A stretch of DNA of 4,449 nt. Source: a virus (lineage: Duplodnaviria; Heunggongvirae; Uroviricota; Caudoviricetes). Position numbers and translations under genes: made by a program. Below, one piece after another: positions 1-4,449 of the stretch (position 1 is the first letter of the stretch; each line of letters begins with the position of its first letter). The stretch is taken from the IMG/VR virus record IMGVR_UViG_2778261509_000009, one strand, 5' to 3'. Below the pieces are notes generated by a model. The model did no database searches and was not told the origin of the DNA. It saw only the letters and a list, made by a program, of their open reading frames with translations.

Positions 1-88
1 CGATTTTTTCCTGAGGTGTTTTACGTTTACGCACCTCTTTTCCTAACAAAACGCCAGCCATCTCAAAATTAGAACTAGTGTTAGACAT
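1..88 (-). CDS. hypothetical protein, N-terminal portion only (gene continues past the left edge)
   Basis: Minus-strand frame is open from an ATG at 88..86 (MSNTSSNFEMAGVLLGKEVRKRKTPQEKI...) to the window edge. An in-frame upstream ATG at 121 is an alternative start. Only a weak SD-like GGA/AGG lies upstream. Same orientation as and directly downstream of the Walker-A ORF. No family recognised. Confidence 0.3.
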   Translation of the reverse strand, partial: MSNTSSNFEMAGVLLGKEVRKRKTPQEKI

Positions 89-149
89 ATATCCAAGCCT
101 ATCTCTTATTTTAAGATACATCTACTGTCTGGTATTTCAGGGGGCCAGC

Positions 150-455
150 TCACATCCAACTTTTTTGATAAGCGGAAAGTTCTCCAGCCATTGCATCCTT
201 GTAAAGTTGATGGGCTGGCCATGGATAGTCACTAAAATTTAGACATACTGAGTAAAACCCGTTGAGATTGGCTGGTTTTCCTCTTCTAAGGTGTTCATAA
301 ATGGCTGTTTTACCAGTACCTTTTCTTCCAAGAACCAACCAAGCCCTACTTTCAATAATATCCTTTATCGCCGGTAGCTTAAAAAAATAGGTCTGTAAGT
401 CCCGATCTGTTTCTGCTGAAACTTGAAATTCTGGTAGCCAGTCTCTAATGTCCAC
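150..455 (-). CDS. small Walker-A (P-loop) protein, 101 aa; possibly a truncated or minimal NTPase
   Basis: ORF from the six-frame track. GTG start at 455 preceded by a strong SD (minus strand reads GTAAAGAGGAAAAT-GTG). Translation contains LVLGRKGTGKTAI, which fits the Walker A pattern GxxxxGK[ST]. No clear Walker B follows and the ORF is too short for a complete ATPase domain. Coding sequence is AT-rich by eye compared with the replication genes. Confidence 0.55.
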   Translation of the reverse strand: MDIRDWLPEFQVSAETDRDLQTYFFKLPAIKDIIESRAWLVLGRKGTGKTAIYEHLRRGKPANLNGFYSVCLNFSDYPWPAHQLYKDAMAGELSAYQKSWM

Positions 456-523
456 ATTTTCCTCTTTACATTACATTACCTTTATGTTTTTCCAAAATAA
501 ATCAAAGTCATATGGCGTATCAA

Positions 524-561
524 GTTTTTTTGATTATTTATGAGCTCATACTCAAAAAAAC
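524..561. repeat. imperfect palindrome: 12-bp perfect palindrome TATGAGCTCATA (539-550) flanked by inverted arms GTTTTTTTGA (524-533) and TCAAAAAAAC (552-561)
   Basis: Read directly from the sequence. The outer arms are exact reverse complements but are asymmetrically spaced around the central palindrome. Lies in the AT-rich intergenic region about 70-105 bp upstream (minus-strand sense) of the Walker-A ORF start. Confidence 0.5.
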
Positions 562-770
562 TAAATCTAATTTATCTTACGTTAACTAAAGATTTCATAT
601 GTTAGTATGCTCAAGCAATGCTACTGCTGGAGTCTGATGATATCCGTTATACACTAATTGCCACGCACACAAGCGACATCAGTTCATGGCACAAAGCAGA
701 CAACCACGCTACCTCTACCCTATGCCATGAAAATGTCAATTTACATCTTAACTAATGCACTTTAATCTCG

Positions 771-1193
771 TCACTTAAATAGATACCGAACATTTCCCTG
801 ATAAAACGACAATATGCGCTGCATAACTTCGCTCTTCCGGCACTCGCGACAGATTATGTTTAGACGACTGTCGTAGCGACGTATTTCTCCATCAGGTAGT
901 GACCAGATAAGGTCCGGATCAACCACAGCGGGTTTCTTCACCTTCGCCCTAGAGAGTTTTTTGCGGGCATTTTGCCAGTCCTTTCGTGCCTGTTCAGACG
1001 GGAATAACCCGTAGCCGGAGTTGTATACATAACCACTGGCAACCAGCTCTCTGGCAAGAATGCTCATCAGATATCTTGTCGCACCTGTTTTAGCTTCCAA
1101 CTGTCGTAATGTCTCGCGACCGCTCTGGCGCACAAGTTCGACCACCTGCTCTTTAATTTTTTCCCGCTCTTCCTGTGTAAAAACTTTTGCCAC
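771..1193 (-). CDS. hypothetical 140-aa protein immediately downstream of the replication initiator; N-terminus looks like a winged-helix/HTH-type DNA-binding region (by-eye impression only)
   Basis: ORF from the track. GTG start at 1193 preceded by a near-consensus SD (minus strand reads TAAGGAGGACTT-GTG). Begins 40 nt after the initiator stop, same strand. N-terminal stretch TQEEREKIKEQVVELVRQSGRETLRQLEAKTGATRYLMSILARELVASGYV has the helix-turn-helix look of small regulators. No specific family recognised. Confidence 0.75.
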   Translation of the reverse strand: MAKVFTQEEREKIKEQVVELVRQSGRETLRQLEAKTGATRYLMSILARELVASGYVYNSGYGLFPSEQARKDWQNARKKLSRAKVKKPAVVDPDLIWSLPDGEIRRYDSRLNIICRECRKSEVMQRILSFYQGNVRYLFK

Positions 1194-1233
1194 AAGTCCT
1201 CCTTAAAATTACCTCATGACCTGAAATCAACAC

Positions 1234-2199
1234 TTATCCCCTGAAACCAGGCGGAATTTCTGTATCCGGTTCAGAAATATGATTCACACAACGCTGTACA
1301 GGTGAACGTCCCAAGCGGATGACCAGTTCGTCCCATTTTTCGCGGAGTTTTGACGGGCTCATGATGTTTTTTACCCAGAATGGATCTCGCTGTACCCGAC
1401 CAAACATTTCGCAAATTTGTCTGTGGCTTCTGCCATCCAGCATCCGCATTGTGCGCACGTCATTGGCCCAGGCTGTCCAGTTAGGCTCTTTTGGTCGCAT
1501 GATCTCTCCATCGTCGCTGGCAGCCTGTTCGTAAAGGTTCACGATCCGCCCCCAAATCCACTGCGCACACGCCAAATCCTCCCTGCTACCCCACTGGCGT
1601 TTTTTCGCACTAAACACAACCGCGTCGGGGTTCCGGGTTAAAAAATCCTGTTCAGCGGTCTGCGGGTCCGGTTGCGAAGCTTCCGGACGAAAAGTGTTTT
1701 TATTCTCTGTAGTAATCTCTGTTGTATTCTCTGTAAGATCATCAGGCCATTTTGACCCGATGACATTGGGTCGTTTTGAACCAATGGAGCGTTTCATTTT
1801 GACCTCTTCCATCGTGTCATTTTGACCTGATGGAGCGGCGCATTTTGAACCGATGGATTCGTTCAATTTGCCACCATCTAAAAGCTCGCTCCCATAGTTG
1901 ATCGTGTAGAAATTGGTCATATCGCGCTTTGATTTATTGAGCTTTTCACAACGCAAAAGCCCCAGCGTTTTCAGACTTGCAAACGCGCGCTTTAACGTTG
2001 ACTCTGACCAGAATGGGAACTGTTCCAGCCATTGTTCCGTTGTGTTGTAAATCCAGCGAACACCATCACATTCCATGCCGGAATTGGTATCTCTCAACCA
2101 GTAATGCAACTGCTGCAACACAATGGCTTCATTTAAGCCAATCTTCATCGCAAGCTGTGTGTTTATAACCAGTGGGCGTTCAGCAAAAAGAAGGCTCAT
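1234..2199 (-). CDS. phage replication initiator (functional analogue of lambda O; iteron-binding origin-recognition protein)
   Basis: Long minus-strand ORF. The origin-like repeat array lies inside the coding sequence and encodes a repetitive low-complexity linker (SIGSK..SIGSK..VIGSK, TENTTEITTEN), as in lambda where ori sits within O. N-terminal region (AMKIGLNEAIVLQQLHYWL...WSESTLKRAFASLKTLGLL) resembles winged-helix origin-binding domains. Gene order Cro, cII-position gene, initiator matches lambdoid early operons. The track ORF begins at a TTG (2253); I place the start at the first ATG (2199, MSLLFAERPLV...), which overlaps the upstream gene by 20 nt. The start remains uncertain. Confidence 0.8.
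   Translation of the reverse strand: MSLLFAERPLVINTQLAMKIGLNEAIVLQQLHYWLRDTNSGMECDGVRWIYNTTEQWLEQFPFWSESTLKRAFASLKTLGLLRCEKLNKSKRDMTNFYTINYGSELLDGGKLNESIGSKCAAPSGQNDTMEEVKMKRSIGSKRPNVIGSKWPDDLTENTTEITTENKNTFRPEASQPDPQTAEQDFLTRNPDAVVFSAKKRQWGSREDLACAQWIWGRIVNLYEQAASDDGEIMRPKEPNWTAWANDVRTMRMLDGRSHRQICEMFGRVQRDPFWVKNIMSPSKLREKWDELVIRLGRSPVQRCVNHISEPDTEIPPGFRG
1701..1736. repeat. three tandem 12-bp repeats (TATTCTCTGTAG / TAATCTCTGTTG / TATTCTCTGTAA); candidate AT-rich unwinding element of the origin
   Basis: Read directly. Period is exactly 12 bp. Immediately adjacent to the iteron array on the side that is downstream in the initiator gene's orientation, matching the lambda ori layout of iterons followed by an AT-rich region. 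Confidence 0.6.
1748..1863. repeat. iteron array: five direct repeats of ~23 bp with core CATTTTGA(C/A)C(N)GATGGA; candidate origin of replication
   Basis: Copies begin at 1748, 1772, 1795, 1818 and 1841 (spacings 24, 23, 23, 23). A degenerate sixth copy (CAATTTGCCACC) begins at 1864. The third copy diverges in its 3' half. Located inside the replication initiator coding sequence. Confidence 0.8.
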
Positions 2200-2701
2200 A
2201 ATTCCATCCAGCTTTTTGTTGGTATTGCAGTCGATACGCAAGTTTGAAAGCAATTGCTTTTTCTATAAGTTCGTCAGTTTCACGATCCACTACGGCAGGA
2301 TCAGCAAAAAGCAGTCCGGACTCCACCACATCGCCATATTCTTTGTTTAACCCGGCGATCATGTACGTGATGCTTTTTCCGTCACTAATTTCACGATACA
2401 ACCTGAAATCATTAATCCGGATAGCCTCCATAATTGCAGGCACTAGCGCCGTGAACTTTTCACGCTTATCCCTAGTGTCGATAGCCTTCCAGCGTTCGAA
2501 TATCTTCACTCGATTAACGCCAAGCGCTCGCTGATCAACCGCGCCACCTTCATCTGTGACACGCTGAACATCGATGTTCGGGCGCTCTTTCAAAGCCCAG
2601 AATGCTTCAGTGATTAATATCGTCGCCTGCTCCTGTGTCATTCCTGGTCGACATATCCAGGCATCCAGAGCCTCACGAGCCTGTTCAGGAGTGATTTTCA
2701 T
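2180..2701 (-). CDS. hypothetical early regulatory protein in the cII position (173 aa); possibly YdaT/CII-like, not verified
   Basis: ORF from the track with an ATG start at 2701. The start lies inside the last codons of the Cro-like gene (17-nt overlap; minus strand reads AATGAAAATCACTCCTGA), and the 3' end overlaps the initiator start by 20 nt, consistent with a tightly coupled operon. Functional assignment is by synteny only. Confidence 0.75.
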   Translation of the reverse strand: MKITPEQAREALDAWICRPGMTQEQATILITEAFWALKERPNIDVQRVTDEGGAVDQRALGVNRVKIFERWKAIDTRDKREKFTALVPAIMEAIRINDFRLYREISDGKSITYMIAGLNKEYGDVVESGLLFADPAVVDRETDELIEKAIAFKLAYRLQYQQKAGWNYEPSFC

Positions 2702-2912
2702 TGTTCAACCGCCCCGCCCGCTTCGTCTTACGATATTCGTCATAAACTTTGGGATCATACTGAAGCTCCCCGCCAGATGCCTCCTGTAGACGCATCGCGC
2801 GACCTTCAGGAACCAGTATCCCCCAAGCAGCAACACTTGCCAGTCTCACTCCTGCGGCATTGGCAAGCTTTGTTTTGCTGCCAAAAAAAGTAATTGCGTC
2901 AGCTTTAAGCAT
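2685..2912 (-). CDS. dicC: Cro-like small DNA-binding protein, DicC-type (75 aa)
   Basis: Translation MLKADAITFFGSKTKLANAAGVRLASVAAW...GRAMRLQEASGGELQYDPKVYDEYRKTKRAGRLNNENHS matches my recollection of E. coli Qin DicC and the YdaS/Cro-like family. Divergent from the DicA-like repressor. The track ORF starts at a TTG (2915); the adjacent ATG at 2912 has a consensus SD (minus strand reads AATAGGAGGCTTTG-ATG). Confidence 0.88.
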   Translation of the reverse strand: MLKADAITFFGSKTKLANAAGVRLASVAAWGILVPEGRAMRLQEASGGELQYDPKVYDEYRKTKRAGRLNNENHS

Positions 2913-2925
2913 CAAAGCCTCCTAT

Positions 2926-2943
2926 TGTTAGACTTTTCTAACA
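2926..2943. promoter_or_regulatory. operator O1: palindrome TGTTAGA-cttt-TCTAACA in the dicC/dicA divergent intergenic region
   Basis: Exact 7-bp inverted arms with a 4-bp spacer, read directly. The same palindrome recurs at 3437-3454. Lies immediately upstream of the dicC-like SD and overlaps the candidate -10 of the minus-strand promoter. Confidence 0.65.
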
Positions 2944-2970
2944 TTATTGTGCGCGGGATACCTAAGTCAA
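2943..2970 (-). promoter_or_regulatory. candidate sigma70 promoter for the Cro-like/replication operon: -35 TTGACT (plus-strand 2965-2970), 16-bp spacer, -10 AATAAT (plus-strand 2943-2948)
   Basis: Hexamers read on the minus strand. Predicted transcription start near 2936, giving a leader of about 24 nt to the dicC-like ATG. Operator O1 overlaps the -10 and start site. Not experimentally supported. Confidence 0.4.
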
Positions 2971-2992
2971 GAAAAATTAGAATTACCTAACT

Positions 2993-3400
2993 ATGGATAC
3001 AAGAACCCTAGGCCAGCGAGTTCTGGCGCGACGAAAAGAATTACGCTTAACACAACGAGAAGCTGCGCGCCTCGCTGGGGTTGCTCACGTCACAATTTCA
3101 CAATGGGAAAGAGACGAAACCCAGCCAGTCGGAAAACGATTGTTTGCTTTAGCGGATGCTCTGAAGTGCTCACCTACATGGCTAATGTTTGGTGACGAAG
3201 ACAAGGCACCAGTGCCGGCACAAGAACTTCATGTGGAAACAGAGCTAACTCCCAACCACAAAGAATTGATCGAATTATTCGATGCTCTTCCATCTTCCGA
3301 GCAGGAAGCCTTGCTGTCTGAAATGCGCGCAAGAGTAGAAAACTTCAACAAACTCTTCGAAGAAATGCTTAAAGCGCGTAAAAATAAATCAATAAAATAA
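2993..3400 (+). CDS. dicA: XRE-family HTH repressor, DicA-like (135 aa); prophage immunity repressor
   Basis: ATG start. Classic HTH region LTQREAARLAGVAHVTISQWERDE. Overall sequence (...GKRLFALADALKCSPTWLMFGDEDK...LIELFDALPSSEQEALLSEMRARVENFNKLFEEMLKARK) matches my recollection of E. coli DicA in length and motifs. Divergently arranged with the Cro-like gene. Confidence 0.92.
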   Translation: MDTRTLGQRVLARRKELRLTQREAARLAGVAHVTISQWERDETQPVGKRLFALADALKCSPTWLMFGDEDKAPVPAQELHVETELTPNHKELIELFDALPSSEQEALLSEMRARVENFNKLFEEMLKARKNKSIK

Positions 3401-3432
3401 CATTCTTTTCAAGTGATTAGTTGCGCCCACTC

Positions 3433-3458
3433 TTTTTGTTAGACTAATCTAACAAAAA
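3433..3458. promoter_or_regulatory. operator O2: perfect 11-bp inverted repeat TTTTTGTTAGA-ctaa-TCTAACAAAAA (core TGTTAGA-N4-TCTAACA at 3437-3454)
   Basis: Read directly; arms are exact reverse complements. Same core and spacer length as O1. Sits between the repressor stop and the ydfA-like gene. Confidence 0.7.
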
Positions 3459-3462
3459 ACAC

Positions 3463-3491
3463 TTGCCTCTTATGTTAGGTTATTCTAAATT
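3463..3491 (+). promoter_or_regulatory. candidate promoter of the rightward operon: -35 TTGCCT (3463-3468), 17-bp spacer, -10 TAAATT (3486-3491)
   Basis: Weak hexamers (each about 4/6 to consensus), but flanked by O2 upstream and overlapped by O3, the arrangement expected for a repressor-controlled promoter. Low confidence. Confidence 0.3.
3473..3490. promoter_or_regulatory. operator O3 (degenerate): TGTTAGg-ttat-TCTAAat
   Basis: Same 7-4-7 architecture as O1 and O2 with one mismatch in the left arm and two in the right arm. Centre lies 36 bp from the O2 centre. Confidence 0.5.
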
Positions 3492-3568
3492 ACTTTCCAT
3501 CAAGACACCGCACGGTGTTCTCAGCAAACAGTTCCGCTACCCCGGCGTTAAGGGGAAATGAGGTCAGC

Positions 3569-3721
3569 ATGGATACTATCGATCTTGGCAACAGCGAATC
3601 TCTGGTATGTGGCGTGTTCCCCAACCAGGACGGCACGTTCACCGCGATGACGTATACCAAAAGCAAAACGTTTAAAACCGAATCTGGCGCGCGTTGCTGG
3701 TTAGCCAGAAACACTGACTGA
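3569..3721 (+). CDS. ydfA: YdfA-like small protein (50 aa), first gene of the repressor-controlled rightward operon
   Basis: ATG at 3569 preceded by an SD (GGGGAAATGAGGTCAGC-ATG). Translation MDTIDLGNSESLVCGVFPNQDGTFTAMTYTKSKTFKTESGARCWLARNTD matches my recollection of E. coli Qin YdfA, which follows dicA in Qin. The track ORF begins earlier at 3515, but that extension has no homology support. Confidence 0.8.
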   Translation: MDTIDLGNSESLVCGVFPNQDGTFTAMTYTKSKTFKTESGARCWLARNTD

Positions 3722-4098
3722 TGAGGCTGACGATGGAATTTAAAGATTTACCGTCTGATGTACAGAAAACAGCAGCTCATACATTGCATTCTGTGCTGCG
3801 AGAAATCGGGAAAGATATTGCAAGCGAGCCAGCAAAAGATCTGGCCCGGAAAATCAAGACCGCTTTCGTTGAGCTTTATAATGTTGGCACTGACTCTGAA
3901 ACTGTCGAGACCAAGACCGTAAGTTCACCAATATTCTCACTTGAGCCAGGCGTATTATCAGGTGAAATATGCACCGAGATTTCCAGCGAACTGCTTCCGG
4001 TAATACGAGAAGCAATTTGCCGTCGCGGTTTGGATGGAAGTTACGATCATGACGTCCTGCAAGTTCTCAGGACAATGGTGACTTCACTGGGGATTTGA
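3721..4098 (+). CDS. hypothetical acidic protein (125 aa; 121 aa if started at 3733), unknown function
   Basis: ATG at 3721 overlaps the ydfA-like stop by one base (TGATG), suggesting translational coupling. An alternative ATG at 3733 has a GAGG SD 6 nt upstream. No family recognised. Occupies the position where Qin carries ydfB/ydfC/dicF/dicB. Confidence 0.6.
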   Translation: MRLTMEFKDLPSDVQKTAAHTLHSVLREIGKDIASEPAKDLARKIKTAFVELYNVGTDSETVETKTVSSPIFSLEPGVLSGEICTEISSELLPVIREAICRRGLDGSYDHDVLQVLRTMVTSLGI

Positions 4099-4267
4099 TC
4101 CCTGCGTCCTCTAACCTTTTGATATAGCGGTCCTCCAAGAAGCGGTAAATTTTGTCGAAATCATCTTTCCCCTCTGGTTTATTCAGAGGATTACAGGACC
4201 CGTAAGTAGCGGCATACATTTCAACCGTTTTATCAAAAATATAAGAGACAAATTCTTCTTTAGTCAT
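4067..4267 (-). CDS. hypothetical 66-aa protein, convergent with and overlapping the preceding plus-strand gene
   Basis: Internal ATG at 4267 with a good SD (minus strand reads AAGGAAATCTAT-ATG). Its 3' end overlaps the plus-strand ORF by 32 nt (4067-4098). The frame stays open upstream to the right window edge, so a longer product is possible. No family recognised. Confidence 0.5.
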   Translation of the reverse strand: MTKEEFVSYIFDKTVEMYAATYGSCNPLNKPEGKDDFDKIYRFLEDRYIKRLEDAGIKSPVKSPLS

Positions 4268-4346
4268 ATAGATTTCCTTCTTGGTTATTCGGGATAAGAA
4301 GGATACCACCTCGCCTGACGTGGTTAAAAGCAGGCACACAACACGA

Positions 4347-4408
4347 AAGCGCACGGCGAAGTTCGTCTCACTGTACGGTGTCGTTAAATTTAATTCGACC
4401 GTGCGCTT
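4347..4408. repeat. 10-bp perfect inverted repeat AAGCGCACGG (4347-4356) / CCGTGCGCTT (4399-4408) separated by 42 nt
   Basis: Read directly. Lies upstream (minus-strand sense) of the 66-aa ORF. A small hairpin CCGCG-aaatgg-CGCGG at 4423-4438 is nearby. Function unknown. Confidence 0.45.
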
Positions 4409-4449
4409 CCGGTTGTGGCAACCCGCGAAATGGCGCGGCGGTAAGTATG

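Follow-up and report, generated by a model that had tools for sequence, protein, structure and literature searches.

The first 455 nucleotides of the stretch of DNA analyzed here hold a broken gene rather than a functional cassette. We are highly confident that this segment was disrupted by an insertion sequence (IS), such that the 5′ part of a prophage ATPase gene is now joined to the left end of ISEc48. The stretch as a whole (hereafter, the window) is 4,449 bp long and is the entire draft contig NLPY01000114.1 (GCA_002231095.1), which ends inside the ISEc48 repeat. According to the original prediction, the segment was a cassette in which a short Walker-A open reading frame (ORF) was followed by a second gene. 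What we find is an IS-truncated pseudogene built of two parts that had both been catalogued already, one in protein family NF047389 and the other as ISEc48. We propose that ISEc48 transposed into codon 102 of the ATPase gene (after nucleotide 303), in the same orientation, in the sampled lineage. The TGA with which the element begins would then stop translation from the original GTG and Shine-Dalgarno sequence after residue 101, the ORF that follows would be that of the IS transposase OrfA, and the assembler would have broken the contig inside the multicopy IS. Such a break would explain why the second ORF leaves the window.

The features that first drew attention to the segment can be read from the DNA, and on these points the earlier description was accurate. 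On the minus strand, a 101-codon ORF occupies positions 150..455, with a GTG start at 455-453 and a strong Shine-Dalgarno sequence (AAGAGGA, 460..466, same strand) 5 bases before the GTG. RefSeq annotation gives the same GTG start to the intact ATPase gene. Residues 43-50 form a clean Walker A motif (GRKGTGKT, encoded at about 329..306) that agrees with the pattern GRKGxGK[TS] near 43-50, and there is no Walker B motif in the 101 residues. Counted from the stop codon of the ORF, the two other minus-strand frames reach their own stops after 21 and 44 nt, within the 50 nt that had been claimed for them. The AT richness of the segment was also described correctly: GC content is 40.2% in positions 1-455 and 33.7% in the adjoining spacer (456-770), compared with 46.9% in 771-4449. 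This AT-rich spacer (456..770, minus strand) lies between a DUF977/Ren-like gene and the ATPase gene, is 99.5-99.8% conserved in intact loci, and presumably holds the ATPase gene's own promoter. A promoter and terminator scan of positions 1-1000 gave nothing above shuffled expectation, and the sigma-70-like matches at 664..637 and 523..494 in the spacer are no more than shuffled sequence yields. Searching the whole window against Rfam identified no family.

The case for truncation comes from comparison with intact copies of the gene. When we searched window bases 800..1 against 5,426 complete Escherichia coli genomes with megablast, 40 genomes matched at 99.5-99.8% between base 800 and base 152, and the similarity went no further. 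The matching gene in those genomes is a 1,488-bp coding sequence (CDS) for a protein of 495 aa that is annotated "P-loop ATPase, Sll1717 family" (WP_000354584.1, E. coli NRG857C). A pairwise DNA alignment with the NRG857C gene reveals identity through ...CAAAAAAGTTGGATGT and then complete divergence, with the break directly after ...AAAAGTTGGATGT. At the protein level, WP_000354584.1 and the window ORF agree in every one of residues 1-101. Based on DNA and protein identity along with a match to NCBIfam model NF047389, we read positions 153..455 (minus strand) as the 5′ end, codons 1-101 of 495, of what was a prophage gene for an Sll1717-family P-loop ATPase. The match to NF047389 reached 58.7 bits (E = 5.6e-16) and covered profile positions 5-90 of 454; since the 101-aa fragment alone attains such a value, its Walker A motif is not a product of chance. 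The intact allele scores 250.4 bits against a curated whole-protein cut-off of 75, and the 58.7 bits of the window ORF fall below it. The window ORF ends before Walker B and the downstream invariant residues and falls well short of the characteristic length of about 495 aa. Judged by sequence, the window ORF is a fragment of an NF047389 member and not a member by itself. It shares with WP_000354584.1 the start, the Shine-Dalgarno sequence, the upstream spacer, and the position in the prophage, but only 20% of the protein is encoded in the window, without Walker B, the helical lid, or the C-terminal winged-helix-like part.

Almost all relatives of the ATPase are about 470-520 aa long and can be aligned over their whole length; shorter ones are pieces of genes that were disrupted or cut by a contig edge. 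It had been suggested that the ORF could be the N-terminal remnant of a larger ATPase and that longer homologues with an aligning N terminus would reveal truncation; the 495-aa protein is such a homologue, and the suggestion holds. The original prediction had also named a 5′ fragment of a disrupted gene as the finding that would count against the cassette, and this is essentially what emerged. Its argument that a simple frameshift was unlikely proved right, but it had not considered the real cause, an IS insertion in which the TGA of the element ends the ORF. We likewise rejected a frameshift pseudogene: similarity to the intact gene stops abruptly, and IS sequence takes over.

The sequence that takes over is the left end of ISEc48 (1..152, minus strand), an IS2-like element of the IS3 family that is cut here by the contig end. 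Window positions 152..1 are 100% identical (152/152 nt) to ISEc48 in hundreds of records, including many E. coli copies. Three ISEc48 copies with unrelated left flanks all start at TGAGCTGGCCCCC, which places base 1 of the element at window position 152. The TGA that ends the 101-aa ORF (152-150) is therefore the first triplet of the IS. The left terminal inverted repeat (TGAGCTGGCCCCCTGAAATACCAGACAG...ATCTTAA; 112..152, minus strand) was recognized from its pairing with the right end of the element, which reads ...AATAAGGGGGCAAGAACA. This pairing is imperfect and was seen with the right end of a complete 1,337-bp copy (L010) in reverse complement, TGTTCTTGCCCCCTTATTTCCAGACAG...ATCTTAA. Complete ISEc48 elements measure 1,336-1,337 bp and have imperfect terminal inverted repeats of about 41 nt along with an IS2-like OrfA. 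The window combines a TG-initial terminal inverted repeat with identity to the named element and includes the left end and the start of OrfA, yet it holds only 152 of the ~1,336 bp.

The "second gene" of the original prediction is the N terminus of the ISEc48 transposase OrfA (MSNTSSNFEMAGVLLGKEVRKRKTPQEKI...; 2..88, minus strand), as indicated by its translation and by the continuation of the frame in complete copies. The claim that a second ORF follows on the same strand and leaves the window was correct. This ORF begins at 88 (MSNTSS...) or at 61 (MAGVLL..., the RefSeq start for ISEc48), about 60 nt downstream of the 101-aa ORF, and runs off base 1. In complete copies the frame begins MSNTSSNFEMAGVLLGKEVRKRKTPQEKIAIIQQ... 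and is annotated "IS3-like element ISEc48 family transposase." The window contains the first 20-29 codons of OrfA; complete copies elsewhere encode a frameshifted OrfA/OrfB transposase. One exception is the ISEc48 copy of E. coli UMNK88 (L010:2501-3837), which is 1,337 rather than 1,336 bp long and in which OrfA and OrfB form one 402-aa frame. It represents a naturally fused transposase allele that does not need a programmed frameshift. The four mentions of ISEc48 found in the literature are incidental.

IS3-family elements normally make target duplications of 3-5 bp. We compared the flanks of ISEc48 copies in complete E. coli genomes, including L010:2501-3837, L011, L014, L015, and L016, and found perfect direct repeats of 16, 15, 16, and 15 bp around four copies and of 5 bp around one; another copy (L012) had none. 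Set against the norm of the family, target duplication by ISEc48 looks atypical.

If the insertion was simple, its right junction would read as the ISEc48 right end followed by (T)CAAAAAAGTTGGATG and then TATCTTTTTTATATT..., given that the intact gene continues past the insertion point with TATCTTTTTTATATTAAGG. We looked for this junction in JGI metagenomes, allowing N{0,30} between the IS right end and the downstream gene sequence, and obtained 0 matches; the ATPase-ISEc48 junction occurs in 0 of the 5,426 complete E. coli genomes. As in strain STEC313, where the gene took up IS3, the rest of the ATPase gene probably still lies beyond ISEc48. Duplications of 15-16 bp would copy the ATG of M101, and gene callers could then report the 3′ part as an ORF of 395 aa. 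A product of precisely this kind, M101..I495 (P0136), is recorded in 4 contigs. While it is what a retained 3′ part would be expected to yield, it could equally stem from frameshift alleles and is suggestive only.

Alternatively, ISEc48 may be present while an IS-mediated deletion has removed the 3′ 1.2 kb of the ATPase gene, perhaps along with hokD and rem. The right junction lies outside the contig, the L012 copy with its lack of flanking repeats indicates that rearrangements occur at ISEc48, and the complete genomes of EA2 and GPEC1405 carry only 3′ remnants of the gene. We nevertheless consider a deletion unlikely, given the match of P0136 to a retained 3′ part, subject to the ambiguity just described, and the retention of both halves in the parallel IS3 insertion of STEC313.

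An assembly artifact, in which the ATPase gene was joined to ISEc48 only by a chimera at the contig end and is uninterrupted in the real genome, strikes us as highly improbable. It is true that the contig is short (4,449 bp), is a draft that ends in a multicopy repeat, and carries a junction seen in no finished genome. However, contigs of at least seven other independent assemblies end at the same nucleotide of the ATPase gene, and the break falls precisely at IS base 1, as it does in genuine copies. In seven such contigs, from different assemblies that include a metagenome assembly from ENA, the sequence ends within 0-1 nt of codon 101. This is the behavior expected at a repeat boundary and argues for a real insertion common to a lineage rather than a chimera. 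A contig of assembly GCA_033746495.1 shows 100% identity to the window contig over 4,298 nt.

There is next to no chance that the ORF encodes a small Walker-A nucleotide-binding protein that forms a two-gene cassette with its downstream neighbor: it does have a good Shine-Dalgarno sequence and start along with a clean P-loop, and gene calls in 10-11 contigs yield exactly this 101-aa product, but most of these calls are "partial" CDSs truncated by a contig end, the product equals the first 101 residues of a 495-aa protein, the stop codon is part of the IS, the downstream ORF belongs to the ISEc48 transposase, and the ATPase family has no conserved partner gene in 80 loci from other species, where the commonest neighboring family occurs in 6/80 loci, all Streptomyces. 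The notion that a small protein works with the downstream gene is accordingly one that we abandon. More broadly, our findings call for caution where a short Walker-A ORF lies at the end of a draft contig: such ORFs need to be checked for IS boundaries before they are read as miniproteins.

An alignment of 60 sequences, with identity down to 22%, contains 19 invariant columns, 8 of which fall in residues 1-101 (A14, F24, G43, K45, G46, G48, K49, and W100, with the P-loop at G43-K49). The other 11 lie beyond residue 101 and comprise D220 and D223 (Walker B), R265, D276, K279, W290, R302, P347, R348, S382, and E392. In the AlphaFold model of the intact protein (pLDDT 87.0; pTM 0.85), residues 40-43 form strand 1, residues 49-58 helix 1, and residues 67-73 strand 2, and the Walker-B strand spans 214-220; it is followed toward the C terminus by helical parts and small parts that contain beta structure. 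According to this model, what the stub keeps is limited to strands 1 and 2, helix 1, and the P-loop. With two core strands and the P-loop as all that is left, we infer that no nucleotide-binding domain can form. The 101-aa stub would be unable to bind and hydrolyze nucleoside triphosphates (NTPs) as a folded domain and would be nonfunctional, making the source strain a natural knockout of the ATPase.

By its predicted fold, the intact parent resembles an ORC/Cdc6-like AAA+ ATPase. Its model best matches proteins of the ORC/Cdc6 type, with a Foldseek E value of 2.8e-6 to Cdc6/Orc1 (2qby_A), and the best-aligning group includes archaeal SSO1545/PABY2304 and the BREX ATPase BrxC at sequence identities of 9-16%. 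Unlike BrxC, the intact ATPase gene stands alone, without BREX partners. The likeness to ORC/Cdc6 applies to the intact parent only, as the 101-aa stub is without most of the fold. Pfam family PF24389 ("ORC-CDC6-like") gave weak matches in 28/60 relatives, the E. coli ATPase reached no threshold in Pfam (PF24389 and AAA_16 included), and a search of PDB sequences with the intact protein returned nothing meaningful.

The insertion in the window is one of several ways in which this gene has decayed. Of the 5,426 complete E. coli genomes, 43 have the ATPase gene, and 39 of these have it in full length. In STEC313 and STEC367, the gene is split by IS3 after nucleotide 575, and the halves are annotated as separate "P-loop ATPase" CDSs (L098:1165-3913 in STEC313). 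This is an independent IS3-family insertion into the same prophage gene, with an N-terminal Walker-A stub of 197 aa as a separate CDS. It differs from the insertion in the window with respect to the element (IS3 proper rather than ISEc48) and the site (after nucleotide 575 rather than 303). Moreover, both halves are visible in the finished genome of STEC313, whereas the window shows the 5′ part only. The two genomes with only 3′ remnants, EA2 and GPEC1405, account for further cases. The protein collection that we searched includes a +1-frameshift product of 106 aa (P0130) and a variant with an in-frame deletion of 20 aa (P0004), both from draft assemblies, along with a fusion variant (P0142). 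The gene may carry a fitness cost or be autotoxic, given that ISEc48, IS3, a +1 frameshift, and deletions have disrupted it independently. The same collection holds a 402-aa partial product of the gene (P0138) that starts at S94 and is recorded in 6 contigs. These contigs reach at least 22 nt further upstream than the site of the ISEc48 insertion and fit neither the intact gene nor a 15-16-bp duplication. It should be kept in mind that IS disruption of prophage accessory genes is routine and that both parts of the segment were catalogued before, such that the window itself carries little significance.

Elsewhere, the window carries the immunity and replication genes of a lambdoid prophage of the Qin/Rac type. 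Going from its right side toward the ORF, the genes encode DUF1391 (YdfA), a DicA-like HTH repressor (2993-3400), a P22-Cro-like protein, a YdaT/CII-like protein, an O-like initiator, and a DUF977 protein that is Ren-like by PHROGs (771-1193). In complete genomes the block continues with hokD, rem, ydfU, and an antiterminator, and 39 complete E. coli genomes have the intact ATPase gene in lambdoid prophages of this type, flanked by the DUF977/Ren-like gene and hokD.

Beyond E. coli, the parent family is large and mobile. It comprises 1,383 clusters at 50% identity (E <= 1e-3), and at least 367 species representatives carry an Sll1717-family ATPase. The E. coli protein is 63-71% identical to proteins from Nitrosomonas, Sulfuricurvum, Flagellimonas (Flavobacteriia), a Patescibacteria metagenome-assembled genome, and Bdellovibrionaceae. 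Relatives at 62-71% identity (L018-L028) span Campylobacterota, Bacteroidota, Patescibacteria, Bdellovibrionota, and Beta- and Gammaproteobacteria. High identity across distant phyla, together with the 35.1% GC of the E. coli gene, points to horizontal spread, and the sequences imply recent and wide transfer of a single gene. The idea of laterally acquired AT-rich cargo fits the parent gene in this respect, while the "cassette" part of that idea fails, because the segment consists of two unrelated things that were joined. The immediate neighbors in other taxa are mixed (RhuM, AbiH, GlnRS, GyrB, a permease, and PhoD), and this mix is not enough to call a defense island. Sequenced phages yielded only two distant tblastn matches, at 23-24% identity. 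The function annotation of PHROG 13260 is "unknown," and our literature search on the Sll1717 family and WP_000354584 found no paper that mentions the family.

Could the intact ATPase act against other phages? In PADLOC-DB 2.0, the intact protein matched the candidate PDC-M28C weakly and over residues 212-304 only (E = 4e-5), and the stub gave no match. The NCBIfam model DS41_1_antiphage yielded 18 bits against a cut-off of 370. Across PADLOC-DB 2.0 and the antiphage models of NCBIfam, no known anti-phage defense model was matched over its full length. Still, the position of the gene in the ren-nin moron slot, its composition, its mobility, and its predicted fold are compatible with a candidate stand-alone, single-gene NTPase for phage exclusion or defense, carried as a prophage moron. 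We put this forward tentatively, as a possibility that is at best evenly balanced. As a large, mobile, uncharacterized family that is ORC/Cdc6/BrxC-like, it would be a reasonable candidate for defense screens that employ the intact allele. Should the defense reading be true, the window itself would offer only a null allele that has already been inactivated.

Two further observations concern the prophage genes to the right of the ATPase. Around the DicA-like repressor gene there are three related operator-like palindromes (TTGTTAGAC-N4-TCTAACAA and variants), located at 2919-2946, 3430-3458, and 3466-3491. One is in the divergent promoter region between the repressor and cro, and two are downstream of the repressor gene; all three are probably immunity operators. 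In addition, the start of the O-like protein depends on how it is called. The mechanical ORF (339 aa, from a TTG at 2253) shares its first 74 nt (2180-2253) with the end of the YdaT/CII-like gene, and the start used by gene callers and RefSeq, at window position 2199, gives a protein of 321 aa with an overlap of 20 nt.
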